Assembly: GCA_963705085.1 (NCBI GenBank)
Contig: CAVPIV010000004.1
Coordinates: 794,193-858,192 of the forward strand
Direction of reading: 5' to 3'
DNA from: an uncultured Thermoleophilia bacterium
Lineage (GTDB): Bacteria > Actinomycetota > Thermoleophilia > UBA2241
DNA length: 64,000 nt
Part shown: positions 3,757 through 57,536 of the stretch, in pieces
Position numbering within the stretch: the stretch's first letter is position 1
Layout of the letters: each line of letters begins with the position of its first letter
The notes under the pieces: generated by a model
What the model saw: only the letters and a program-made list of their open reading frames with translations
Told to the model about the DNA's origin: nothing
The model's database searches: none
Made by a program: the position numbers and the translations under genes

Positions 3757-7214
<3,458 letters not shown>

Positions 7215-7722: not shown

Positions 7723-9243
7723 CTAGCGGCCCAGAGCCCGCTCGATGTGATGCTTGAGCGGGTCGGCGTCCAGCCGCCCGCCGCCGTGCTTGAGCAGCAA
7801 CCGCTCGGCGGGGTAGTGCTGACCGTCGGACCAGAGCTCCTTGAGCCAATCCGCCGCCGCCGGCTGACCGAACCACTCCATGCCGTGGCGGTCCTGAAGC
7901 ATCATCCGCAGGGCGCCCTCGAAGAGCCACGCCCGCAGGTAGGAGGCACAGTAGAAGCCGTCGTCCACGTCGACGAGGTAGCTCTGCGCGGGGACATCGA
8001 TAAGGAGCGCGGCGCTGAGGCGCCGCGCGTAGGCGGCCGGCATGTCGTCCAGCGGCCCCGTCTGGGCATGGAGTTCCGTCTCGTAGGCTAGCTTGGCGAT
8101 GTAGCGGCGTATGAAGTACAGATCGTTGACGTTGGCGAAGCGCAAGAAGTCGTCGGCGTCGCTGAACCCGAGCGTGACGTCCAGCCAGCGGCGGCTGAAG
8201 GCCAGGTGCTCGAAGAGGAACGCGAAGGCCTCGGTGACGGCGTTGTCGCCCAGGTGGCGGTACTCGAACGCGAGGTCGGGACGCACGTGCGCGAAGTGCT
8301 CGGTGTGTCCGGCCTCGTGGAGCAGCGTCGCGTAGTCGTCCTGGCCGCCCTGCGGCAGGACGACGAGGTAGATCTCCTCGGGGACGCGCACGGGCGAGCA
8401 GAAGGCGCGGGGGGTCTTGAGGGGCCGGACGTCGGTGTCGAGGTGCACGTTGCGCTGCGCGTCCAGATCGATGTCGAGACCGGCCAGCGTGCTCCGCAGA
8501 GCCGGCACGAGGCCGTCGGCAGTGAACACGTGGTCGTAGTCGCGCGCCCGCCAGAGGTACGGCAGGTCGGCGTAGCGCAGCTTGCTGAGCGGCACGCCGA
8601 GTCGCTCGCGAGTAAGGGCGTCCATGACCCGCTCGTAGAGCCCCGCCGTGTCGATGAGGAAGCCCTCCAGCTCTGCCCGAAGGCGCGTGTAGTCGAGTCC
8701 TTTGACCTCGGAGTAGAGCTCCATGTAGTTGGGGTATCCCAAGCCGGCCGCGAGGTCATGGCACTGGCGCCAGTACCGGTCCAGGAGCGGGTTGAGCCGC
8801 TCGGCGACCGCGGCGAGTCTCGCCTCCTGGATGCGCTCGCGGCGCCCCGCGTCCGCCTCGTTGGCCTGGACCACACCCGCCTGGCGGAGGCCGATCGCCT
8901 CGCCGTCCACCAGGATCTGCGCGGCGCCCTCGGTGTTGGCGATCTCGTCGCTCAGGTGCTTCGTCTGCTCCCCCATGTAGCCGTCGACGTTGAAGGCGAG
9001 CAGGTACGCGAGCCGGCGCTTCTCGTCGTCGACGGCCGGCTCGTACAGCTCGTTGAGGCGCACGAAGGTCTCTTGCGTGAACAGCTCGGGGTAGCGGTCG
9101 TACACCGGCGCCGCCTCGCACGTCTGCTTCTGCCCCGAAAAGTGCCGGTAGTACTCCGTGTCGAGCTCGCAGATGAACTCCTCGGCGCGCCGCCGGTAGG
9201 TGTCGAGATCGAGGTTCGTCACAGGGCTCTCCTTGCGCCGCAC
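7723..9243 (-). CDS. Zinc metallopeptidase, M3/PepF-like oligoendopeptidase
   Basis: 506 aa with HEAGHTEH HExxH motif and downstream Glu; overall PepF-like architecture. Confidence 0.6.
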   Translation of the reverse strand: MRRKESPVTNLDLDTYRRRAEEFICELDTEYYRHFSGQKQTCEAAPVYDRYPELFTQETFVRLNELYEPAVDDEKRRLAYLLAFNVDGYMGEQTKHLSDEIANTEGAAQILVDGEAIGLRQAGVVQANEADAGRRERIQEARLAAVAERLNPLLDRYWRQCHDLAAGLGYPNYMELYSEVKGLDYTRLRAELEGFLIDTAGLYERVMDALTRERLGVPLSKLRYADLPYLWRARDYDHVFTADGLVPALRSTLAGLDIDLDAQRNVHLDTDVRPLKTPRAFCSPVRVPEEIYLVVLPQGGQDDYATLLHEAGHTEHFAHVRPDLAFEYRHLGDNAVTEAFAFLFEHLAFSRRWLDVTLGFSDADDFLRFANVNDLYFIRRYIAKLAYETELHAQTGPLDDMPAAYARRLSAALLIDVPAQSYLVDVDDGFYCASYLRAWLFEGALRMMLQDRHGMEWFGQPAAADWLKELWSDGQHYPAERLLLKHGGGRLDADPLKHHIERALGR

Positions 9244-9380
9244 GTGTGGCGGCCGCCTCGCCGCCCGAGCTGACCCCCACTGTACCAGCTCGCACGCCCG
9301 GCGGGCAGGCTCGGGAAGCGCCGCGAGGTAGACAATCGCAACGGTTCGCCGCGCTCGCGCCCTGCCGCTAGACTGGCCCG

Positions 9381-10769
9381 GTGGCGCCCCGCAGCGGAGA
9401 CACCCTCGACCTGACCGTCGACACGCTGGCCTATGGCGGCCAGGGGGTCGCGCGGGTCGACGACTTCGTCGTCTTCGTGCGCGGTGCCGTGCCGGGCGAT
9501 CGCGTGCGGGCCCGCGTGACCAAGCGCAAACGGAGCTACGCCGAGGCGCGGATCGTCGAGATCCTCACCCCCTCCCCGCGCCGCCTTCCCGCCGTTTGCC
9601 CTCACGCGGCGGAGTGCGGGGGTTGCGAGTGGCAGACCCTCGCCTACGACGCCCAGCTCGAGTTCAAGGAGCGCCAGGTCGTCGATTCGCTGACACGGCT
9701 GGGGCGTCTGACGGACTTCGACCTCGACCCCATCTGCGGCATGGCCGATCCCTGGCGCTATCGCAACAAGATGGAGTTCTCCTTCGGCGAGGACGAGGAC
9801 GGCAGGCCGGCGCTCGGTCTGCATCGCCGGGGCTCCTGGAGCGAGATCGTCGACACGCCGGGCTGCCTGCTCGCCTCTGGACGCATGATGGCCGCGCGCG
9901 CGGCGACGGCCCGAGCGAGCCGCGAACTCGGGCTGGCGCCCTACTCGCGCGAGCGAGGCGCCGGCCTCCTGCGGCACCTCGTCGTCCGCGAGGGCCGGAC
10001 CAGCGGCGACCTGCTGCTCAACCTCTTCGTCACGGCGCGGTTCGCGCAGGAGCAGGCACTGGCCGAGCGAGTGACGGCGGACACCGGCTGCACGTCCTTC
10101 GGCGTCACCGTCAACGCCAGCCCGGCCGACGCCGCGGTCGGCGAGGGGCCCTTCCTGCTGCTCGGACCGGACTACCTGCGCGAGCGACTGGCCGGCGTCG
10201 ATCTCCGGGTGCCGGCCACCGCCTTCCTGCAGACCAACAGCGCCATGTGCGAGGTCCTCTACGCGACCGCCCTGGCCTTCGCGGCGCCAGACCCCGAGCG
10301 CCCGGCCGTCGACCTCTACTGCGGCATCGGCTCCCTCAGCCTGCCGCTCGCCCGGCGGGCCAGCGAGGTCCAGGCCGTCGAGATCCAGGAGGAGGCGATC
10401 ACGGCGGCCCGCGAGAACGCCGGCCTCAACGGGATCACGAACGTCGCCTTCCACGCCCGTGACGTGCGGCCTCTGCTCAAGTTCCCGCCGCACCCGGTGC
10501 TCGACGCCGCCCGCGGCGACGAGTCCCAGCGTCCCGCCGCCCTCATCGTCGACCCACCCCGCGCGGGTATGGCCCGCAAGGCGCTGCAGCGCGCGGCGGC
10601 CCTCGGCGCGGACAGGTTCGTCTACGTCTCCTGCAATCCGACGACGCTGGCCGGCAACGGCGCGGAACTGGCGCAGCTCGGCTACGGTCTCAGGCGCGTG
10701 GCCCCGGTCGACATGTTCCCGCAGACGCACCACATCGAGACGGTGGCGCTCTTCGTCCGGGAGTCGTAG
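9381..10769 (+). CDS. rlmD: 23S rRNA (uracil-5)-methyltransferase RlmD/RumA
   Basis: N-terminal TRAM domain, 4Fe-4S Cys cluster (CPHAAECGGCEWQ), SAM-MTase motifs DLYCGIG and C-terminal VSCNP; GTG start. Confidence 0.85.
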   Translation: MAPRSGDTLDLTVDTLAYGGQGVARVDDFVVFVRGAVPGDRVRARVTKRKRSYAEARIVEILTPSPRRLPAVCPHAAECGGCEWQTLAYDAQLEFKERQVVDSLTRLGRLTDFDLDPICGMADPWRYRNKMEFSFGEDEDGRPALGLHRRGSWSEIVDTPGCLLASGRMMAARAATARASRELGLAPYSRERGAGLLRHLVVREGRTSGDLLLNLFVTARFAQEQALAERVTADTGCTSFGVTVNASPADAAVGEGPFLLLGPDYLRERLAGVDLRVPATAFLQTNSAMCEVLYATALAFAAPDPERPAVDLYCGIGSLSLPLARRASEVQAVEIQEEAITAARENAGLNGITNVAFHARDVRPLLKFPPHPVLDAARGDESQRPAALIVDPPRAGMARKALQRAAALGADRFVYVSCNPTTLAGNGAELAQLGYGLRRVAPVDMFPQTHHIETVALFVRES

Positions 10770-21005: not shown

Positions 21006-22076
21006 TCAACGTTCAAGGTAGAGATCCTTGCGAGTCTGGGAGGCGACGGCCAAGAGACGGGCGTAGTGCTCGGGTGTGGCGACCGCCGCTCTCAACGGCT
21101 CGGCTTCCCGATCGCAGTTACAGAGTACATCGGCGGCGCCGCAGACCACCACCCACAGGTCGCGCACCCAGGAGGCGAGGACGTCGAGCGCGTCCTGGGC
21201 CGCCAGACGCGCCAGCCGTCTGTCCTCGCGGCGCGCGCGCTCCGTGGCGCCGTCCTGCCGCCACTTGAGCTCACGCTTGTCCGGGAACTGCAGCTCGAGC
21301 TCCTGGAGGCGGCGACTCAGCTCCGCCTGCGACGCCGCCTTGATCTCCGACCTGTGCTGCTCGAGGACGCCGAGGAACGCCTCCTGGGCCCCCATCGCGG
21401 CTGAACCCCCTCCACCGACGATGAGCGCCGCCTGCGTCAGGTACTCACCGCGCCGCGCCGGGCCGCGCGCGTCGTCGGCGAAACGCTCGGCCCGCTCGAC
21501 GGACCCCGCAGCCAGCCGCGCGAGGGCGGTGGCGGCGAGCTCGTCCAGCCCGTGGGTGCCGCGCAGCGAGGCCGCTACTTCGTCATCGCTCAGCGGCCGG
21601 AACTCGACGATCTGGCAGCGCGAGATGATCGTCGGAAGCACGCGCTCCAAACGATCGGTGACGAACAGGAAGTGGACGAGGCGGGGCGGCTCCTCAATGA
21701 CCTTGAGCAGCTTGTTGGCCGCCGCCGCGTTGAGGTACTCGGCCTCGGGCAGCACCCAGACGCGGCGACCGGCGCTGAAGGGCCTCAGGCCAAGATCATC
21801 GAGGATCGGTTTCACCTGGTCCACGCGATACACGTCCCCCTCTCGTTCCAGGACGTGCAGGTTCGGGTGCAGGCCGCGGCGGGCGCGGTCGCACTCCGGA
21901 CAAGCTCCGCAGCCCCCGCAGGAGCTCACCAGGGCGACGCCCAGCTCGCGCGCGAACGCGGTCTTCGCAAGACCCTCGCGGCCGCTGAACAGGTAGGCGT
22001 GGCCCAGGCGGTTCTCGCGCAGCGCCCGGACGAACTGCGCCTTGACGCGCTGCTGGCCGGCGACCGACTCGAACAT
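21006..22076 (-). CDS. holB: DNA polymerase III delta-prime subunit
   Basis: HAYLFSGREGLAKTAFAREL, CGGCGACPEC zinc module, SRCQIVEF; ATGA overlap with tmk. Confidence 0.85.
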   Translation of the reverse strand: MFESVAGQQRVKAQFVRALRENRLGHAYLFSGREGLAKTAFARELGVALVSSCGGCGACPECDRARRGLHPNLHVLEREGDVYRVDQVKPILDDLGLRPFSAGRRVWVLPEAEYLNAAAANKLLKVIEEPPRLVHFLFVTDRLERVLPTIISRCQIVEFRPLSDDEVAASLRGTHGLDELAATALARLAAGSVERAERFADDARGPARRGEYLTQAALIVGGGGSAAMGAQEAFLGVLEQHRSEIKAASQAELSRRLQELELQFPDKRELKWRQDGATERARREDRRLARLAAQDALDVLASWVRDLWVVVCGAADVLCNCDREAEPLRAAVATPEHYARLLAVASQTRKDLYLER

Positions 22077-43357: not shown

Positions 43358-44251
43358 TTGGATATCACCTTGATCCTGGTGCCCTACGACCTCGGGCGTG
43401 AGGGAGTCGGCAGCGGACGCGGCCCCCAAGCCTATCTTGACGCCGGCGCCGTGAGGGCGCTACAGGCGCACGGGCACGACGTGGAAGTCGTGACCGCCCG
43501 GCGGGCCGGCCCCTTCACGTCTGAGCTCGACGCCGTGCTCGACGTCGACGCCGCCGTGGCGACGCACGTCGCCGCGGCGGCGCGCGCCCATCGCTTCCCG
43601 CTCGTACTGGCCGGGAACTGCAACGCCGCCCTCGGCGTCCGCGGCGGGCTGCTCGCCGCCGACGATAGTGATCATCTGTCCGGCCTGGCATTGATGTGGC
43701 TGGACGCGCACGGCGACTTCAACACGCCCCAGACCTCGTACACCGGGTACCTCGACGGCATGCCGCTCGCCATGCTCACGCAGCGGGCGTACCCGGACCT
43801 CTGGGCGAGACTCGGCGGCGGGCCGCTGAACGAGCGTCTCGTGGTGCACGTCGGCAGCCGGGACTTGGACCCGGCGGAGACGGCCGAGCTGCGGGCGTCC
43901 GAGGTGATCGTCGTGAGCGGCGCCACCGTTCGCGACCACGGGATCGGCAGCGCCCTCCAGCCGGCGCTCGACACGCTGGCAGAGCGAGCGGCAGGAGTCG
44001 GCGACACGCCGCCGCCGCTGCACCTGCACGTCGACATCGACGTGCTCGACCCGGCGGCCGCGCCCAGCGTCGCCTTCCCGGCACCCGGCGGCCTCTCCCT
44101 GGCGGAGTTGCTGGCCGCCGTGGACATGGCCGGCGCGCGCTTCAGTCTCCGGGCGCTCTCTCTGACGTCGTTCGCGCCGGACGGCGCCGGCGACGGCAGG
44201 ACCAGCGCCGCCGGCCTCGCCGTCATGCTACTGGCGGCGAGCGTCGCCTGA
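43358..44251 (+). CDS. Arginase/agmatinase/formiminoglutamase-family ureohydrolase
   Basis: DAHGDFNTP, SRDLDP, HLHVDIDVLDP metal-binding motifs; TTG start. Confidence 0.75.
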   Translation: MDITLILVPYDLGREGVGSGRGPQAYLDAGAVRALQAHGHDVEVVTARRAGPFTSELDAVLDVDAAVATHVAAAARAHRFPLVLAGNCNAALGVRGGLLAADDSDHLSGLALMWLDAHGDFNTPQTSYTGYLDGMPLAMLTQRAYPDLWARLGGGPLNERLVVHVGSRDLDPAETAELRASEVIVVSGATVRDHGIGSALQPALDTLAERAAGVGDTPPPLHLHVDIDVLDPAAAPSVAFPAPGGLSLAELLAAVDMAGARFSLRALSLTSFAPDGAGDGRTSAAGLAVMLLAASVA

Positions 44252-44321
44252 GAGGCAGCGAGGGCGCGGCCGCGATCATATGGGTCACGCGGGTCAGGGC
44301 GCGCGACCTGCCGGCTCCGGC

Positions 44322-45617
44322 TCAGCGGTACACGTAGAGGCGCTCGCCGACGAAGGCGCGATCGTAGATCCAGTCGGCGACCCACATCGGCTCACGGATG
44401 CACCCGTGGCTGGCTGGGTAGGGCGGCACCGGCACGTACCCGTGAATCGCGAAGTTGCCGTAGAAGCCCATCGTGCGGAAGAGGATGCCCCCGTACCCGG
44501 ACGTGGTGGCCGGGTGCTTCTGCTGGATCCTGAAGCTGCCCTCGGGCGTGTTGCCCGTGGCGCCGGTGGAGACGGCGATGAGAGCGCGCAGCTTGCCGCC
44601 CCGCACCATCATCAGGATCTGGCGGCTCTTGTCGACCTCGAGGTGGTCGGAGGGCCCGGCGTACCGCGGGCGAACGGGCTTCGCCGTGTCGAGCCTGCGC
44701 CAGTCGTCGCCGTCGACGACGTACGTGCGGGGCAGCCGGTATGCCTTCTGGAACGCGACGACGGCGTCGCCGCAGTCGCTCGTCAGGGTCTCGCCGACGG
44801 AGGGGACGCGAATCCTGAGGCGCTGGAGGGCAGCGACCAGCCCACGAACGTGGGGTCCTCTTGATCCCACGGCGAGCCGCTTCGCCGCGGCGCGGACGTC
44901 CTTGTCGACGGTTCGCGCCCCCAGCTCGGCGGTGCCCGGCAAGGCCGACGTCACGGAGAACAGGCCGATGCCGCGCAGCGGCAGCTCGAAGGTGACGACG
45001 CCGCCCCGCACCCGCCCGGCGTACGTGCCGACGAACGCGCCGTGATGCGCCAGCGTGGTCGTGACCACGCCCGCATAGGCGGCCGGCTCGACCTTGAGGA
45101 CGTAGCGCAGCGTCAGGAAAGGAACGGCCGCGCCGGTCGTCACGGTCACGCGCGGCTTGACGACAAGAGACCGGGCGGCGCTGGAGGCGCCGTCGGGCAC
45201 GAGGCGGGCCGCCACGTCGCCGCCGCGCACCGGCGTGAACTCCGCGGCGTAGAGACCGTCGGCGCCGGTCGTCGCCGTGGCGACCTCGATCCCGGCGAGG
45301 GTGATGCTGACCTGCAGACCGGGGGCGGCCGGCGTGACCGCCCCCGAGGCGGTCACCGGGGCGCCGTAGACAACCGACGCCTGCGAGAGAACGCAGGTGA
45401 TCTCGACGACGGGAGACGGCGACGCGTCGGGGACCGCCGGCGCGGCCGGAGCCGCGGGCGGCGCTAAGGCCGGCGACCCCTCCAGCGACGGGTTCGCCGC
45501 CACCAGCGGCGCGCCGCCGGCAACAAGCAGGAGCGCGACAACGATCACCGGCGCCGCCCGCCGCAGCAGCCGGCGTACGGCCTCCGTCGCACCGTGGCAT
45601 CGACCGGCCTTGATCAT
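44322..45617 (-). CDS. L,D-transpeptidase family protein with signal peptide and PG-binding-like domain
   Basis: YkuD catalytic motif ASHGCIR near C-terminus; N-terminal hydrophobic anchor. Confidence 0.8.
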   Translation of the reverse strand: MIKAGRCHGATEAVRRLLRRAAPVIVVALLLVAGGAPLVAANPSLEGSPALAPPAAPAAPAVPDASPSPVVEITCVLSQASVVYGAPVTASGAVTPAAPGLQVSITLAGIEVATATTGADGLYAAEFTPVRGGDVAARLVPDGASSAARSLVVKPRVTVTTGAAVPFLTLRYVLKVEPAAYAGVVTTTLAHHGAFVGTYAGRVRGGVVTFELPLRGIGLFSVTSALPGTAELGARTVDKDVRAAAKRLAVGSRGPHVRGLVAALQRLRIRVPSVGETLTSDCGDAVVAFQKAYRLPRTYVVDGDDWRRLDTAKPVRPRYAGPSDHLEVDKSRQILMMVRGGKLRALIAVSTGATGNTPEGSFRIQQKHPATTSGYGGILFRTMGFYGNFAIHGYVPVPPYPASHGCIREPMWVADWIYDRAFVGERLYVYR

Positions 45618-45738
45618 CCTGGCCTCCTCTCGACCTGCACCCTGTCCCCGGGTTCACCGGGACACTAGCACGAGGCCAGCGCGACGGTCGAGACGTACGG
45701 TACGATGTGCGCACGAGCCACGACCCGGAGGACTTTCC

Positions 45739-46992
45739 ATGCTCGACGTCAAGATGCTGCGCGCGAACCCGGACGCGGTCCGCAGGGCACTCGAACGCCG
45801 CGGCGCGTCGACCGTCCTCCTCGATGACTTCCTCGCGCTCGAAGCACAGCGTCGCAGGCTCCTGACCGAGGTCGAGACGATGCGCGCCGACCGCAAGCGA
45901 GCGAGCGACGAGATCGCGAGCGTCAAGAAGGCCGGTGGCGACGCCGCCCAGGCGATCGCCGGCATGCGCGCCCTCGGCGACACGATCAAGGAGCGGGAGA
46001 CTGAGCTCGGCGATGTCGACGAGCGCTTGCGCGCCATGGTGCTGGAGCTCCCGAACCTGGTCCTCGACGACGTCCCGAACGGCCGCGATCCGGCGGTGCT
46101 GCGCCACGTCGGACAACCGCCGGCGTTCGACTTCGAGCCCCTCGACCACCTCGACCTCGGGGTCGCCCTCGACGTCATCGACATGGAGCGCGCGGCCAAG
46201 GTCAGCGGATCGCGCTTCGCCTACCTCAAGGGCGACCTCGTGCTGCTCCAGTTCGCCCTCACCGGCTACGCTCTGGACATCATCTGCGGCCAGGGCTTCC
46301 GCCCGGTCGTGCCCCCGGTGCTCGTACGCGAGGAGGCCATGTACGGCACGGGCTTCTTCCCCACCGACCGTGCCCAGGTCTACGAGACCCTCGACGGCGA
46401 CTGCCTCGCCGGCACCAGCGAGGTCCCTTTGGCCGCCATGCACATGGAGGAGTACCTCGAGGCGGCCGACCTCCCGCTGCGCTATGCCGGCTACTCGACC
46501 TGCTTCCGCCGCGAGGCGGGCGCTGCGGGCCGCGACACGCGCGGCATCCTGCGCGTCCACCAGTTCGACAAGGTTGAGATGTTCAGCTTCTGCCTGCCCG
46601 AACAGGCCGCCGCCGAGCACCAGCGCATCCTCGCCACAGAAGAGACCATTCTGCGGGGACTCGGCATCCCGTACCGGGTCGTCAACATCGCCGCCGGCGA
46701 CCTCGGTGCTCCGGCGGCCCAGAAGTTCGACTGCGAGGCCTGGCTGCCTGGCCAGCGGCAATACCGCGAGGTGACGAGCTGCTCCAACTGCACCGACTAC
46801 CAGGCCCGGCGGCTCAACTGCCGCTTCCGCACCGACAAGGGCCCACGGTTCGTGCACACGCTCAACGGCACCGGCGTCGCCGTCGGCCGGACGCTGATCG
46901 CCATCATGGAGAACTACCAGATGGCCAACGGCACGATCGCCGTGCCCGACGTGCTGCGCGCGCGCATGGGCAAGGACGTGATCGGCGGCTGA
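45739..46992 (+). CDS. serS: Seryl-tRNA synthetase
   Basis: N-terminal coiled-coil arm, class II motifs (FRREAGAAGRDTRGILRVHQFDKVE, GTGVAVGR); SD GGAGGA. Confidence 0.9.
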   Translation: MLDVKMLRANPDAVRRALERRGASTVLLDDFLALEAQRRRLLTEVETMRADRKRASDEIASVKKAGGDAAQAIAGMRALGDTIKERETELGDVDERLRAMVLELPNLVLDDVPNGRDPAVLRHVGQPPAFDFEPLDHLDLGVALDVIDMERAAKVSGSRFAYLKGDLVLLQFALTGYALDIICGQGFRPVVPPVLVREEAMYGTGFFPTDRAQVYETLDGDCLAGTSEVPLAAMHMEEYLEAADLPLRYAGYSTCFRREAGAAGRDTRGILRVHQFDKVEMFSFCLPEQAAAEHQRILATEETILRGLGIPYRVVNIAAGDLGAPAAQKFDCEAWLPGQRQYREVTSCSNCTDYQARRLNCRFRTDKGPRFVHTLNGTGVAVGRTLIAIMENYQMANGTIAVPDVLRARMGKDVIGG

Positions 46993-47055
46993 GGGCGGCC
47001 TCCGCCGTCCTTCCTTTCGGGGCGGCAGCGGGACCCGCCGCCGGCCGCTCCAGGC

Positions 47056-47466
47056 TCAGTCCACGAGCTCGGCCGGCCCAAACCCGGGACCGCGGCCGTT
47101 CTCCCGCCAGGGGATGAGGTAGGAACGCACCTCAACGCCGGGGCACTCGTTCTCGAGCAGCGTCCTCGCCCGGCGCAGATCGCGCTCCAGCAGCTCCTGC
47201 TGATCGAAGCCGAACCCGCCGAGGACCCGCTCGTAGGCTCCGCACTCCTGGTGCGACACGAGATGGATCGTCCGTAGCCCTTGCGTCTCGAGGTGGACGC
47301 GCACGGCGTCGAGGGCGAAGCGCCGCTCCCCGCCGGAGCGCGTGAAGAGCAGGGGGCCGCCGGGGATGAGAATGCGGTCCGCGTCCGGCACGCCGAGCCA
47401 CGCCTGCAGCGTGCTGAGAGGGCCGGCGATCCGGCCGTCCGAGCAGGCGATGACGAGCGTCTTCAT
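47056..47466 (-). CDS. Small beta-carbonic-anhydrase-like protein
   Basis: CSDGR and HQECG motifs spaced as in beta-CA zinc ligands; only 136 aa. Confidence 0.45.
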   Translation of the reverse strand: MKTLVIACSDGRIAGPLSTLQAWLGVPDADRILIPGGPLLFTRSGGERRFALDAVRVHLETQGLRTIHLVSHQECGAYERVLGGFGFDQQELLERDLRRARTLLENECPGVEVRSYLIPWRENGRGPGFGPAELVD

Positions 47467-47946
47467 CGCGGGGGGCCGTGCGAGAGTTCGTGCACCGCGG
47501 ACCACCTGTCTGCGCTCACCCAACTACCCTTGGCCGTCGCAGAAGGCGAGAGAGCGTCCCCTGGATCCGAGACGGCCCTGAGCACCCTGCGGCGTGAAGC
47601 TGTTGTCGACCGCTTGACAGGAAAGATGAGCCCCAAGCGATACAGGTCGGGTGGCGGAGCGGCAGACGACGGCACCTGTCCTCGGCATCGACGTGGTCGG
47701 CGTCGACGTGCGGGACCCGGACATGATGCCGCCACCACGGCGATCCGGGCGCCGCGCGGTGACGACAGGTACGTCGGCGGCCGCCTTACGGGCATGGCGC
47801 CGGTTTGCCCGAGCAAGCGCGCCCACGCCAGGGTGGAGCTACGGCCACCTTGTGCCGGCGACAGGGCGCTCCGATAATGGGAAGCGCTCAGCCACCGGAT
47901 GCCGTTTCCACCACGGCCGCCCCGGACCACTCCAAGAGGCCCCTCG

Positions 47947-49032
47947 ATGAACACAGCACGACGAGATCCTGTGCGGAGGCTCTGTCAGCGAATCCTGGAC
48001 GGTCACGCCCCGGACGAGATGGAGCTGTGCGGGCTGCTCGAAGCAGGCGGTCGGGACAGGGAGACGATCTGCGAGGCCGCCAGACAGATGCGAGCACGCA
48101 CGTCCGGAGATGTCGTCTTCCTCTATGGGTTCGTCTACTTCTCGACGTACTGTCGCAACCGCTGCGCCTTCTGCCTCTATCGCGCGAGCAACCCGCTCAG
48201 CCCTCGCTATCGCAAGACGCAGGACGAAGTGCTGGAGGCATGTCGTGCTCTGGCGACGTCCGGCGTCGTCCTCCTCGACCTCACGATGGGCGAGGACCCT
48301 GCCATTCACGACGATCCGGAGTACCGCTCTCTCCTGGATCTGGTCGCCGCCGTGGCCGATGAAACGAACCTTCCGCTCATGATCTCGCCGGGTCTCGTGC
48401 CGGGCGCGGTGCTCGGCGCCCTGCGAGAGCGGGGCGCCACGTGGTACGCCCTGTACCAGGAGGCGCACGACGGGGAGCTTTACGCTCGTCTCCGTCCCGG
48501 ACAGCCCTTCCCGGCGCGCGCCGCCGCGCGCAGCGCGGCCCGGCGCGCCGGCCTCCTCGTCGAGGACGGAATCATGACGGGAATCGGCGATACCCCTCGC
48601 GACAGGGCGCGCTCGATCGTGGACATGCGAGCCGCCGACTGGGAGCAGATTCGGGTCATGAGCTTCGTTCCGCAACAGGGGACGCCGCTCGCGACGGTCT
48701 CTTCGCCGTCCGACGACGCCGAGTTGCTCACGATCGCGGCGATGCGCCTGGCCATGCCGGACCGCCTCATCCCGGCGTCCCTCGACGTGGCCGGCATCGA
48801 CGGTCTGGAGCCGCGACTGAACGCCGGGGCCAACGTGGTGACGTCCATCGTACCTCCCCACAGCGGGTTTCTCGGCGTCTCGCAGGCCGATCTCGGCGTC
48901 GACGAGGGGCAGCGCACGGTCGCGAGCGTCGTGTCGCGGCTCGAGGCGCTCGGGCTGCGCGCCGGTTCGGTCGACCAGTACCGTGAGCGCCTGACGGCGC
49001 TGTCGGCCCAGACCGCGGCGGTCGTGGCATGA
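47947..49032 (+). CDS. pylB: Radical-SAM 3-methylornithine synthase PylB homologue
   Basis: FVYFSTYCRNRCAFCLY CxxxCxxC, LDLTMGEDP, LPLMISPGL, RLIPASLDVAGIDGLEPRLNAGANVVTSIVPP. Near-collinear with archaeal PylB. SD AAGAGG. Confidence 0.85.
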   Translation: MNTARRDPVRRLCQRILDGHAPDEMELCGLLEAGGRDRETICEAARQMRARTSGDVVFLYGFVYFSTYCRNRCAFCLYRASNPLSPRYRKTQDEVLEACRALATSGVVLLDLTMGEDPAIHDDPEYRSLLDLVAAVADETNLPLMISPGLVPGAVLGALRERGATWYALYQEAHDGELYARLRPGQPFPARAAARSAARRAGLLVEDGIMTGIGDTPRDRARSIVDMRAADWEQIRVMSFVPQQGTPLATVSSPSDDAELLTIAAMRLAMPDRLIPASLDVAGIDGLEPRLNAGANVVTSIVPPHSGFLGVSQADLGVDEGQRTVASVVSRLEALGLRAGSVDQYRERLTALSAQTAAVVA

Positions 49033-49164
49033 GACACCGTTGTTCGTGACCGCGCGGACGCCGGAGGGCGCCCGAGTGCGAGCCGCAAGCGCGCGTGTCG
49101 CTTCCACGGAGCGCCGCGAGCTTCGGCCGCACGAGATCACCAGCCGGGACCGGCGGCGTCCCAC

Positions 49165-49980
49165 GTGACCCGCCTCACCCCCAGAGACACTCACGATCTC
49201 GTGGCCCGGGTTCACCGCCTCGACCGCACGCTGCTCGACGCCTGCGGCCTCGACTTGCTGGCGCTCGCCGCCCGAGCCGCGGGACGGGCCCCCGCCCATG
49301 TGAACGAGCGCCTCGCCGGCGCGCGCGTCGCAGCCATCCCGATGACTGCCGGCCAAGGTGTGATTCCGGGCTTCAGCCAGGGCGTGGCGGGCGTGCTGCG
49401 TCATCTCACCTGCACGGCCTGGGTCACGGACGCCGTCGACGTGTCGGGCGTCGACGAGGCCGTCAACGCCGGAGCGACCGTCGTCTTCCTCGCCGACGAC
49501 AGTCGTTTCATCGCCCTGAACATCGTCGAAGGACGATGCGTCAACAACGATACTTGCACAGCGGACGGCTACGTCGCAGCGCTGGCGGCGGCCGCAGGGG
49601 ACCTCCGGAACCGCTCGGTCCTCCTGCTTGGGCTGGGGCCGATCGGGCGCGCCGCGGCGCGCCGCCTGCTCGAGCACGGCGCGCGCGTCTGGGTGGCCGA
49701 ACCGGATCCGGAACGACTGCGCGCCGGACTCGACGACTACCCCGCGCTGCGGCCGGCCACGATCCAGGACGGGCTCGGCCGCTGCAAACTCATCCTCGAC
49801 GCCACACCGGCGCGAGGTCTCGTGGGCGCGGCCGACGTGGACCACGACACGATCGCGGCCGTGCCGGGCCTGCCGTCGGGCTTCACCGCAGAGGCCCAGG
49901 CAAAGCTCGGCGCCCGCCACATTCACGACCCGCTGGCCGTCGGCGTGGCTGTCATGGCCGTCCGCTCGCTCGTCCGGTGA
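49165..49980 (+). CDS. pylD: PylD homologue (3-methylornithyl-N6-lysine dehydrogenase)
   Basis: IPMTAGQGVIPGF, VTDAVDVSGVDEAVNAGATVVFLADDSRFIALNIVEGRCVNNDTCT, DATPARGL..VPGLP..EAQAKL..DPLAVG collinear with PylD; GTG start. Confidence 0.8.
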   Translation: MTRLTPRDTHDLVARVHRLDRTLLDACGLDLLALAARAAGRAPAHVNERLAGARVAAIPMTAGQGVIPGFSQGVAGVLRHLTCTAWVTDAVDVSGVDEAVNAGATVVFLADDSRFIALNIVEGRCVNNDTCTADGYVAALAAAAGDLRNRSVLLLGLGPIGRAAARRLLEHGARVWVAEPDPERLRAGLDDYPALRPATIQDGLGRCKLILDATPARGLVGAADVDHDTIAAVPGLPSGFTAEAQAKLGARHIHDPLAVGVAVMAVRSLVR

Positions 49981-50097
49981 TCACCGCGCGGTGATGGTCG
50001 CGCCGATCGCTCAGGGAACCTCACGATGCACGCCCGGGCACGGCGCTCGTCACGCCATCTAGGCCGCGCCGGCGCCCGTTGCTACACTGCAGCCAGA

Positions 50098-50187
50098 GGA
50101 GGGGTGGCAGAGTGGCTCATTGCACCGGTCTTGAAAACCGGCAACGGCGAGAGCCGTTCGTGGGTTCGAATCCCACCCCCTCCGCCA
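50098..50187 (+). tRNA. tRNA-Ser (anticodon UGA), type II
   Basis: GGAGGGG acceptor, anticodon loop CUUGAAA, long variable arm, GGUUCGAAUCC, CCA encoded. Confidence 0.9.
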
Positions 50188-50396
50188 GCCGTCTTCACCC
50201 GCGGAGCAGCCGGATCCAGCCGTGAGCGGCGAGCGGCGGCTGACGCTCCGCGAATGGTCCCTGCCCCACCTTCTTTGCTGGTATCCTACGGTTCCGGTAG
50301 AGTAGGTAAGCACTACTCTCGTGCGCAAAAACCACCGAACCCTCGGCGACGATACGGGCATTCTCGGATTCGCCGGGAGGACACAGGGAGTCGTCG

Positions 50397-50717
50397 ATGG
50401 AAGAACTGACCCTCGCCGTCCCGGGCATGTGGGCGGACCACCACGTGATCACCGTGCGCGAACTCCTGCGCGACGCGGGCATCTCGTCGATCGTCGCAAG
50501 CGCCCGCGACGCGTCCGTCCGCCTCACGTACGATCCGTCTCTGACGAGCCCGGCGCAGATCGCGGCCCTCCTCAAGGACGGCGGCTACCCCGCTGGAGAA
50601 GCCGAGAAGCCGGCGGCGTCGCCCACGAACAAGCCCGCCTGGGCGACGGCCGGTGTGCGCGTCACCGCCACCAACTCGATTGACCTGATCATGTCCGGGG
50701 ACCACCGGAAGTACTGA
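50397..50717 (+). CDS. Cysteine-less HMA-fold protein (GMWADHH replaces GMxCxxC); candidate Ni/metal chaperone for CODH
   Basis: TLAVPGMWADHHVITVRELLRDAGISSIVASARDASVRLTYDP..IAALLKDGGYPA aligns to the HMA ferredoxin-like fold; 120 nt upstream of cooS. Confidence 0.5.
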   Translation: MEELTLAVPGMWADHHVITVRELLRDAGISSIVASARDASVRLTYDPSLTSPAQIAALLKDGGYPAGEAEKPAASPTNKPAWATAGVRVTATNSIDLIMSGDHRKY

Positions 50718-56181: not shown

Positions 56182-57531
56182 GTGGCTCTCACCGGACTGC
56201 AGATCTACAAGCTCCTGCCCCAGACGAACTGCAAGGAGTGCGGCTTCCCCACCTGCCTCGCCTTCGCCATGAAGCTCGCCCAGAAGGGCACTGAGCTCGA
56301 CAAGTGCCCGCACGTGAGCGACGAAGCCAAGTCGGCCCTGGACGCCGCCTCGGCGCCGCCGATCAAGCTGGTCGCCGTCGGCGCCGGCGAGCGCGCCTTC
56401 GAGATCGGCAACGAGGTCGTCCTCTTCCGTCACGAGAAGACCTTCTACCACCAGCCCGGCATCGTCGTCCGCGTCGCCAGCGACGATCCGGCGCTGGCCG
56501 AGAAGGCCGCTGCCGTCGCCGGCTACGAGATCGAGCGCGTCGGCATGAAGCTGCGACTCGACGGCCTCGCCGTCCAGCAGGCGGGCGACGCGGCCGCGTT
56601 CGCCGCGGCCGTGGCCGCGGCCCGCGCGGCCGCCCCGGGCCTTCCGCTGGTCCTCGAGAGCGGCGACGCCGCGGCCGTCGATGCTGCCCTGTCGGCCGGA
56701 GCCGCCGTCGAGAAGCCGCTCATCCACGGCGCCACGGCCGCCACCTGCGACGCCATGACCGCGGTGGCCAAGAAGCACGGCTGCCCGCTCGTCATCTGCG
56801 CCGAGGGCGGCGATCTCGGCGCCCTCGTCGATCTCTCCGACAAGGCGCGCGCGGCGGGCGTCGAGGACCTGATCCTCGACGCCGGCGCCGTGTCGCTGGC
56901 CGGCGATCTCGCAGCCCTCACGCAACTGCGCCGCCTGGCGCTCAAGAAGGGGGCCCGCGCGCTCGGCTTCCCGATCCTCGCCGACGCCGGCGCGCCCACG
57001 TGGCAGGCAGAGCTCATTCGCGCCGATCAGGCGATCGCCAAGTACGCGGGGGTCGTCGTCCTGGACCACATGGAGCCGGGCGAGATCTACGCGCTGCTGA
57101 CCCTGCGGCAGAGCATCTACACCGATCCGCAGAAGCCGATCCAGGTCGACCCGAAGCTCTACGAGGTCGGCACCCCCGGCCCCGACAGTCCGCTGCTGAT
57201 CACCACCAACTTCTCCCTCACGTACTTCTCCGTCTCCGGTGAGGTGGAGGGCTCGCGCGTACCGAGCTGGCTGCTGGTGGCGGACTGCGACGGCCAGTCG
57301 GTGCTGACGGCCTGGGCGGCCGGCAAGCTCGACGCCGAGAAGATCGCCAAGACCGTCAAAGCCTCCGGCATCGGCGACAGGCTCACCCACAAGAAGCTCG
57401 TGATCCCCGGCCACGTCGCCGGGCTCTCCGGCGAGGTCGAGGAAGAGCTGCCGGGCTGGCAGATCATGGTCGGCCCCCGCGACGCCGTCGACATCCCGAA
57501 CTACCTCAAGACCGTCTGGGTCGCGGCCTAG
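56182..57531 (+). CDS. acsC: Corrinoid iron-sulfur protein large subunit (AcsC/CdhE)
   Basis: N-terminal 4Fe-4S CKECGFPTCLAFAMKL..CPH motif, C-terminal B12-binding domain; GTG start. Confidence 0.85.
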   Translation: MALTGLQIYKLLPQTNCKECGFPTCLAFAMKLAQKGTELDKCPHVSDEAKSALDAASAPPIKLVAVGAGERAFEIGNEVVLFRHEKTFYHQPGIVVRVASDDPALAEKAAAVAGYEIERVGMKLRLDGLAVQQAGDAAAFAAAVAAARAAAPGLPLVLESGDAAAVDAALSAGAAVEKPLIHGATAATCDAMTAVAKKHGCPLVICAEGGDLGALVDLSDKARAAGVEDLILDAGAVSLAGDLAALTQLRRLALKKGARALGFPILADAGAPTWQAELIRADQAIAKYAGVVVLDHMEPGEIYALLTLRQSIYTDPQKPIQVDPKLYEVGTPGPDSPLLITTNFSLTYFSVSGEVEGSRVPSWLLVADCDGQSVLTAWAAGKLDAEKIAKTVKASGIGDRLTHKKLVIPGHVAGLSGEVEEELPGWQIMVGPRDAVDIPNYLKTVWVAA

Positions 57532-57536
57532 TCTCG

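Follow-up and report, generated by a model that had tools for sequence, protein, structure and literature searches.

In archaea and Firmicutes, the canonical pyl cluster has the gene order pylT-pylS-pylB-pylC-pylD, and PylB, the methylornithine synthase, uses lysine and SAM. The order found in Thermoleophilia is AFOR-ferredoxin-nitroreductase, or alternatively a DUF3467 gene, followed by pylB-pylC-pylD-pylT, with pylS located a few kb away. The placement of pylT after pylD, instead of before pylS, was seen in three Thermoleophilia relatives (L107, L108 and L024). In the same three loci (L107:2-6676, L108 and L024:2475-13233), pylBCD lies directly 3' of genes for homocitrate synthase-like (HMGL-like/HCS_D2), aconitase-family, Iso_dh (the isocitrate/isopropylmalate dehydrogenase family of Pfam) and DUF3467 proteins. 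The families of these upstream genes resemble those of an alpha-aminoadipate-type lysine pathway and, if this likeness is true, pyrrolysine synthesis would be linked to lysine supply. Our search of the literature on pyrrolysine in Thermoleophilia and Actinobacteria returned nothing relevant.

The locus described here lies within a 64,000-nt stretch of DNA from an uncultured Thermoleophilia bacterium, which is referred to as the window; its GC content is 69%. Within it, a gap of 480 nt (47467-47946) separates the CAT at 47464-47466, which is the start codon of a gene on the minus strand, from the ATG of pylB at 47947 on the plus strand. An earlier note on this DNA had described the gap as a non-coding spacer of about 480 nt located 5' of pylB, and this description was borne out by the positions of the flanking start codons, by a GC frame plot that is flat and devoid of any frame-specific pattern across the gap, and by the absence of Pfam matches for any ORF inside it. 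The gene on the left, which reads away from the gap, encodes a Pro_CA_2-like, putative carbonic anhydrase-like protein of 136 aa (47056-47466, minus; Pfam PF20393, 27 bits). Its start codon is fixed by the almost uniform length of its homologues, of which 99 were found, nearly all of 136 aa and with the same Met start. The start of pylB is likewise fixed by homologue lengths, together with an AAGAGG ribosome-binding site at 47934-47939, 7 nt 5' of the ATG. As the two genes are transcribed in opposite directions, the gap is a divergent intergenic or promoter region and not merely a leader of pylB. We consider it probable that the gap is made up of about 45 nt of old spacer and about 435 nt that form the left edge of a 2.55-kb insertion carrying a decaying pyl cluster, and that it holds no dedicated RNA element.

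Further to the left, the Pro_CA_2-like gene is preceded by a YkuD-domain gene (44322-45617, minus) and by serS, the longest ORF of which spans 45397-46992 on the plus strand. This longest ORF would encode 531 aa, compared with 417-420 aa in relatives, and its Seryl_tRNA_N domain begins at residue 115; the true start of serS is probably near 45730, a position that abolishes the apparent overlap with the YkuD-domain gene. To the right of the pyl genes lies the tRNA-Ser(UGA) gene (50098-50187, plus), identified by ARAGORN and Rfam, followed by an ORF of 106 aa without a Pfam family (50397-50717) and then by the CODH/ACS genes. Every syntenic relative has this small ORF, at 106-107 aa, in the same place between tRNA-Ser and CODH.

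The genome had been characterised in the earlier note as compact outside the gap. This holds roughly, the median spacer being a few tens of nt, although a rough gene caller returned a few other large gaps in the window, at least one of which is an artefact of a frameshifted dnaK. Two apparent long gaps of this GC3-based caller lie at 21405-22075, which overlaps a 335-codon ORF without a Pfam match, and at 56412-57536, between two genes of the CODH/ACS cluster, one CdhD-like and the other encoding RACo. The dnaK (Hsp70) gene itself (approximately 4261-6150, minus) is split across two frames near 5285-5295 (...GPKHLDLD / LSRAKFDEL...), and this break, an indel of 1-2 nt in a gene that is essential, most likely stems from an error in the assembly. 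Since this split suggests the presence of assembly indels, frame-based arguments in the window call for some caution; the 1.1-kb deletion in pylC described below is different in kind from an indel error of the dnaK type.

The two parts of the gap were distinguished by comparison with syntenic relatives, the closest genomes compared being about 80% identical in nucleotide sequence in the flanks. The Pro_CA_2-like protein of the window is 79-80% identical to those of L081-L088, 72% identical to those of L091-L093 and 65% identical to those of L089 and L090. In six of these relatives (L085, L087, L089, L090, L091 and L092), 77-92 nt separate the start codon of the Pro_CA_2-like gene from the 5' end of tRNA-Ser(UGA), where the window has 2,631 nt. 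Nucleotide synteny with L085 and L087 runs over 44011-47466 and is found again from 50073. The left part of the relatives' spacer corresponds to 47467-47511, a remnant that ends in GGACCACCTGTCT and is collinear with the spacers of L085, L087, L089, L091 and L081, while the right part corresponds to 50061-50097, which starts with AGGCCGCG...GTTGCTACACT and, from its alignment with relatives, represents the ancestral promoter spacer of the tRNA-Ser gene (plus). Joined together, 47467-47511 and 50061-50097 reconstruct an empty site of 82 nt that is collinear with the spacers of the relatives over its whole length. Given collinear flanks, a break in synteny and the reconstruction of an empty site, 47512-50060 is a lineage-specific block of about 2.55 kb, read on the plus strand. 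It contains 435 nt of non-coding DNA (47512-47946), pylB, a pylC remnant of about 47 codons and pylD. The 435 nt gave no match to Rfam, to Pfam or to other pylB loci, and no credible protein homologue. As for direction, parsimony favours an insertion here over repeated losses elsewhere.

Other DNA is found in the same neighbourhood in related genomes. In L081, an unrelated gene of 237 aa (9113-9826) with a weak HEPN match occupies the same junction as the insertion in the window, and L089 and L090 carry integrase- or transposase-bearing islands (approximately 4500-5830) on the 3' side of tRNA-Ser(UGA). By this comparison, the short stretch that separates the Pro_CA_2-like gene from tRNA-Ser(UGA) varies within the lineage. 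The HEPN-like gene of L081 was considered as a source of the gap DNA and was rejected, as no similarity was found. A mobile element borne by an integrase or a transposase was rejected as well: no recombinase gene of either kind is present in 47512-50060, terminal and flanking repeats of the block are all at chance level with no terminal inverted repeats, and the two junctions share TCT alone, a microhomology of 3 nt.

The pyl genes carried by the block are in very different states of preservation. pylB (47947-49032, plus) is intact and encodes a Radical SAM domain; its product finds its nearest relatives in Thermoleophilia MAGs, at 66-72% identity, and has the conserved residue in all 87 of the 87 columns for which conservation among 79 relatives reaches 95% or more. 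pylD (49165-49980, plus) is a full-length ORF with a PylD_N domain (E = 5e-28), the product of which is 55-64% identical to Thermoleophilia proteins and is altered at two positions, G82T and V160I, out of 24 columns of similarly high conservation. Only 132 nt separate pylB from pylD, and what is left of pylC is a 3' remnant of about 47 codons (49025-49168, plus). Translated in the frame from 49001, this region reads WHETPLFVTARTPEGARVRAAS...RELRPHE... up to its stop codon and lines up, in collinear fashion, with the C-terminal ends of PylC from L001, L002 and L024. The remnant is fused just past the stop codon of pylB, and its own TGA overlaps the GTG of pylD exactly as in relatives. When matched to a PylC profile, it was the best of 40 fragments (positions 382-414, E = 0.5); this score is weak alone, and the remnant was identified as pylC because of its position and frame. 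No further similarity to PylC was found elsewhere in the 64-kb window.

No significant similarity to PylS and no pylT gene were found across the 64 kb. ARAGORN found no tRNA-Pyl in the window, and a covariance model built from an alignment of pylT from 35 relatives, run with filters off, matched only the five ordinary tRNAs, with a best score in the gap of 9.8 bits (E = 4.2) and nothing within 49981-50097, the interval between pylD and tRNA-Ser. A complete pyrrolysine cassette (pylB, pylC, pylD, pylS and pylT) was thus not encountered within 64 kb and, judged by this gene content, the pyl cluster is degenerate, at any rate at this locus. Set beside the preserved PylB and the near-intact pylD, another reading would be that an orphan PylB is under selection in spite of the missing pylC, pylS and pylT and makes 3-methylornithine for a use other than pyrrolysine, the 435 nt being a newly acquired, lineage-specific leader or promoter. 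We regard this as very unlikely and favour the decay of an inserted cluster.

The DNA upstream of pylB was then compared with that of other pylB loci, a set of 80 genome loci and five metagenome loci (about 85 together). Both blastn and tblastx comparisons of the gap with the 80 genome loci returned only short, GC-rich chance matches, a 24-mer from the gap had no exact match in the metagenome contigs, and no gap-like DNA was found upstream of pylB in any of the approximately 85 loci. None of them has a long leader; in most, pylB is preceded by a nitroreductase or DUF3467 gene at a distance of no more than about 30 nt. As for whether pylT or pylS occupies the position of the gap in relatives, it is the nitroreductase or DUF3467 gene that abuts pylB there, and pylT follows pylD.

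These comparisons bear directly on the proposal in the earlier note that the gap could be a structured leader, a riboswitch-like element or a small RNA. Control of pylB by a structured 5' leader, such as one that senses lysine or SAM, would be biologically sensible, since PylB uses both compounds, and a long GC-rich spacer with local complementarity (47650-47736) is at first sight a suitable place for one. Against this, an Rfam scan of 46500-48500 at E <= 10 gave seven matches, all outside the gap and all far below thresholds, and the lysine and SAM riboswitch families had no match in the gap at the same cut-off; across the whole window, a scan at the Rfam gathering thresholds returned five tRNAs and nothing else. 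Folding of the 480 nt was not significantly more stable than that of shuffled sequences on either strand (z = -1.40 for plus and -1.94 for minus), and sub-regions gave z-scores of -1.44, +0.10, -0.20 and +1.29. No sequence homologous to the gap, as would be expected of a conserved, structured cis-regulatory RNA, was found in the 80 genome and five metagenome pylB loci or in the syntenic relatives. No intrinsic terminator was found, and the best promoter candidate (see below) allows a 5' UTR of just about 60 nt. Neither conservation nor structural support for an RNA element was found, as far as sequence alone can tell, and the leader or riboswitch reading, which we would call extremely unlikely, appears close to refuted by the absence of conservation.

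The individual motifs that had drawn attention to the gap were also assessed against chance. The helix proposed over about 47651-47743 does have a basis in sequence, as GGTGGCGG (47650-47657) is the exact complement of CCGCCACC (47729-47736) over 8 bp. Of dinucleotide shuffles, however, 80% also have inverted repeats of 8 bp or longer inside a span of 150 nt, and the MFE fold of 47640-47745 (z = -1.44) does not contain the proposed helix, both arms being paired elsewhere. The two direct repeats, 7 nt apart, are also real: TCGACGTG occurs at 47688-47695 and again at 47703-47710, the two copies being part of a 15-nt tandem duplication at 47682-47710 (Tandem Repeats Finder: period 15, 1.9 copies, score 51). 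A direct repeat of an 8-mer within 30 nt was nevertheless found in 35% of dinucleotide shuffles, and TCGACGTG has 22 copies in the window, which track the coding strand. Where several GTCGAC palindromes had been claimed, the gap has only two copies (47605 and 47702), compared with about 0.8 expected from the 102 copies in the window (1.6 per kb). The frequency of GTCGAC and of TCGACGTG in this genome is due to their encoding Val-Asp(-Val) in the preferred codons. The helix, repeats and palindromes of the gap are chance products of DNA with a GC content of 69%.

The TTGACA box reported at 47613-47618 is present, at 47614-47619, but no acceptable -10 hexamer lies 16-19 nt 3' of it. A consensus promoter scan of 46900-50300 gave no sites, and a search for intrinsic terminators was equally negative. 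A better candidate is TTGTGC-N17-GATAAT (47850-47878, plus), which faces pylB and lies 69 nt 5' of its ATG. When both strands of the window are searched for the pattern TTG-N20-KATAAT, it is the sole match, with a mean of 0.02 matches in shuffled sequences and a match in two of 100 shuffles, although the pattern was picked after the site had been seen. AT-rich hexamers are rare in this genome. TTGTGC-N17-GATAAT is a likely candidate for the pylB-pylD promoter, which would give a 5' UTR of about 60 nt. At the other end of the gap, 47467-47511 probably still holds the putative promoter of the Pro_CA_2-like gene.

The possibility that a small protein, or a small RNA of its own, is encoded in the gap was weighed in the same way. 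The plus strand of the gap has open frames of 83-106 codons, those of the minus strand reach 100-173 codons, and an ATG at 47626 is preceded by GGAAAG. Long open frames are, however, expected at 69% GC, the GC3 of these frames is about 0.6-0.7 as against about 0.9 in real genes, and neither Pfam nor a phmmer search with the 106-codon plus frame against 1.84 billion proteins revealed homologues; nor was a promoter-terminator pair found for a small RNA or protein. A product of this kind seems to us barely credible. One phmmer match of the 106-codon plus frame (E = 7e-10) was set aside, since it arose from the summing of about 45 weak matches to a tandem-repeat protein of 3152 aa and does not reflect homology.

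It was further suggested in the earlier note that the gap is the remnant of deleted genes such as pylT or pylS. This suggestion stood in part, as the pyl cluster is degenerate and the inserted block has the gap at one edge, but no significant relic was found in the 480 nt. In its general form, the proposal is that the 435 nt are one or more decayed genes that once flanked pylB, the candidates being pylS on the minus strand and, on the plus strand, a gene similar to SAM-dependent methyltransferases with a stop codon that would have overlapped the start of pylB. The proposal bears only on the origin of the DNA and can stand alongside the insertion scenario. Next to pylB, pylC has demonstrably been reduced by deletion to a remnant, and an open frame on the plus strand (47630-47950) ends in ATGA, overlapping the start of pylB. 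A run of 30 codons at 47645-47734 has gene-like codon usage (10.5, compared with a pylB median of 9.5), yet its score is reached in shuffles with p = 0.10. The duplication, at 15 nt, has a length divisible by three and makes use of a coding-strand word, and an exact 23-mer from it recurs in genes for methyltransferase motifs of the type ..DVVGVDV..; this 23-mer, the core of the direct repeat, had 10 matches in the metagenome contigs L094-L103, all in unrelated coding sequence for ..DVVGVDV... Read in the frame of 47630, 47640-47735 on the plus strand gives ..TGRVAERQTTAPVLGIDVVGVDVRDPDMM.., which recalls the motif I / post-I region of SAM-dependent methyltransferases. The likeness of this reading (TGRVA...DVVGVDV) to a methyltransferase in L103 was rejected, as it falls short of significance when the selection step is allowed for, and Pfam gave no match.

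For pylS, the hint is a stretch on the minus strand (47559-47533) that reads GRSLAFCDG with a stop two codons on and resembles the C-terminal GRSLsYlDG of PylS. The PylS profile, however, reached at best -1.3 bits in the gap, between 8 and 43% of random 480-nt windows match PylS equally well, and frameshift-tolerant alignment failed to lengthen the match of nine residues. Six-frame fragments of the gap scored at or below 0 bits with the PylS, nitroreductase and PylC profiles, comparisons with nitroreductase, PylC, DUF3467 and the Iso_dh family were all at background, and the phmmer search of 1.84 billion proteins gave no credible homologue. A 32-nt piece of the gap resembles 48782-48813 within pylB, with a score reached by one of 108 control chunks; as a relic, this similarity was rejected, being marginal and attributed to the common Val-Asp-Val codon word. 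None of the hints of former coding or of a PylS motif in the gap is statistically significant. A coding origin of the 435 nt is possible but unproven, and we hold descent from such flanking genes to be rather unlikely.

Taken together, the best reading of the gap is that of a scar left by insertion or rearrangement, which is sequence of an ordinary kind. On this reading, the old spacer would once have joined the Pro_CA_2-like gene directly to tRNA-Ser(UGA), as it does in relatives, and the 2.55-kb block would have entered between the Pro_CA_2-like gene and the tRNA-Ser promoter. The block would have carried a pyl cluster now in decay, with pylB intact, pylC down to about 47 codons, pylD present, and pylT and pylS missing. 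The 435 nt would be unconstrained DNA, either brought in with the block or left behind by rearrangement, and the working parts of the region would be limited to the promoter and ribosome-binding site of pylB-pylD and, on the opposite strand, a putative promoter of the Pro_CA_2-like gene. The value of this result is mainly negative, in that a GC-rich spacer with the look of a riboswitch turns out, by comparative evidence, to be the edge of an insertion. It also documents the piecemeal loss of pyl genes in a Thermoleophilia-like genome, with pylC deleted and pylT and pylS missing locally, and reveals variation in the lineage at the spacer that links the Pro_CA_2-like gene to tRNA-Ser. Neither of these observations changes what is known of pyrrolysine biology.

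Compared with the lysine and SAM riboswitches of Rfam, the gap is alike in position only, as it lies 5' of a biosynthetic gene whose product uses lysine and SAM; it differs in having no match in sequence or structure, no conservation, and no terminator or anti-terminator architecture. A further comparison is with small insertions and islets at intergenic sites that vary and adjoin tRNA genes. The block differs from these in that it has no integrase, transposase or terminal inverted repeats and sits 5' of the tRNA gene. It resembles them in occupying an 80-90-nt spacer by tRNA-Ser(UGA) that is empty in most relatives, with a different gene at this spacer in L081 and integrase islands 3' of the tRNA in L089 and L090. 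In comparison with the pyl clusters of Thermoleophilia, the locus differs in its context, which consists of serS, the Pro_CA_2-like gene, tRNA-Ser and the CODH/ACS genes, and in having 480 nt of non-coding DNA where an abutting gene is found 5' of pylB. It differs also in its gene content, pylC being cut to about 47 codons, pylS absent from the 64 kb, and pylT absent from the window, whereas 35 relatives have it about 50 nt 3' of pylD. What it shares with those clusters are orthologues of pylB and pylD, their order, and the overlapping stop and start codons immediately before pylD.
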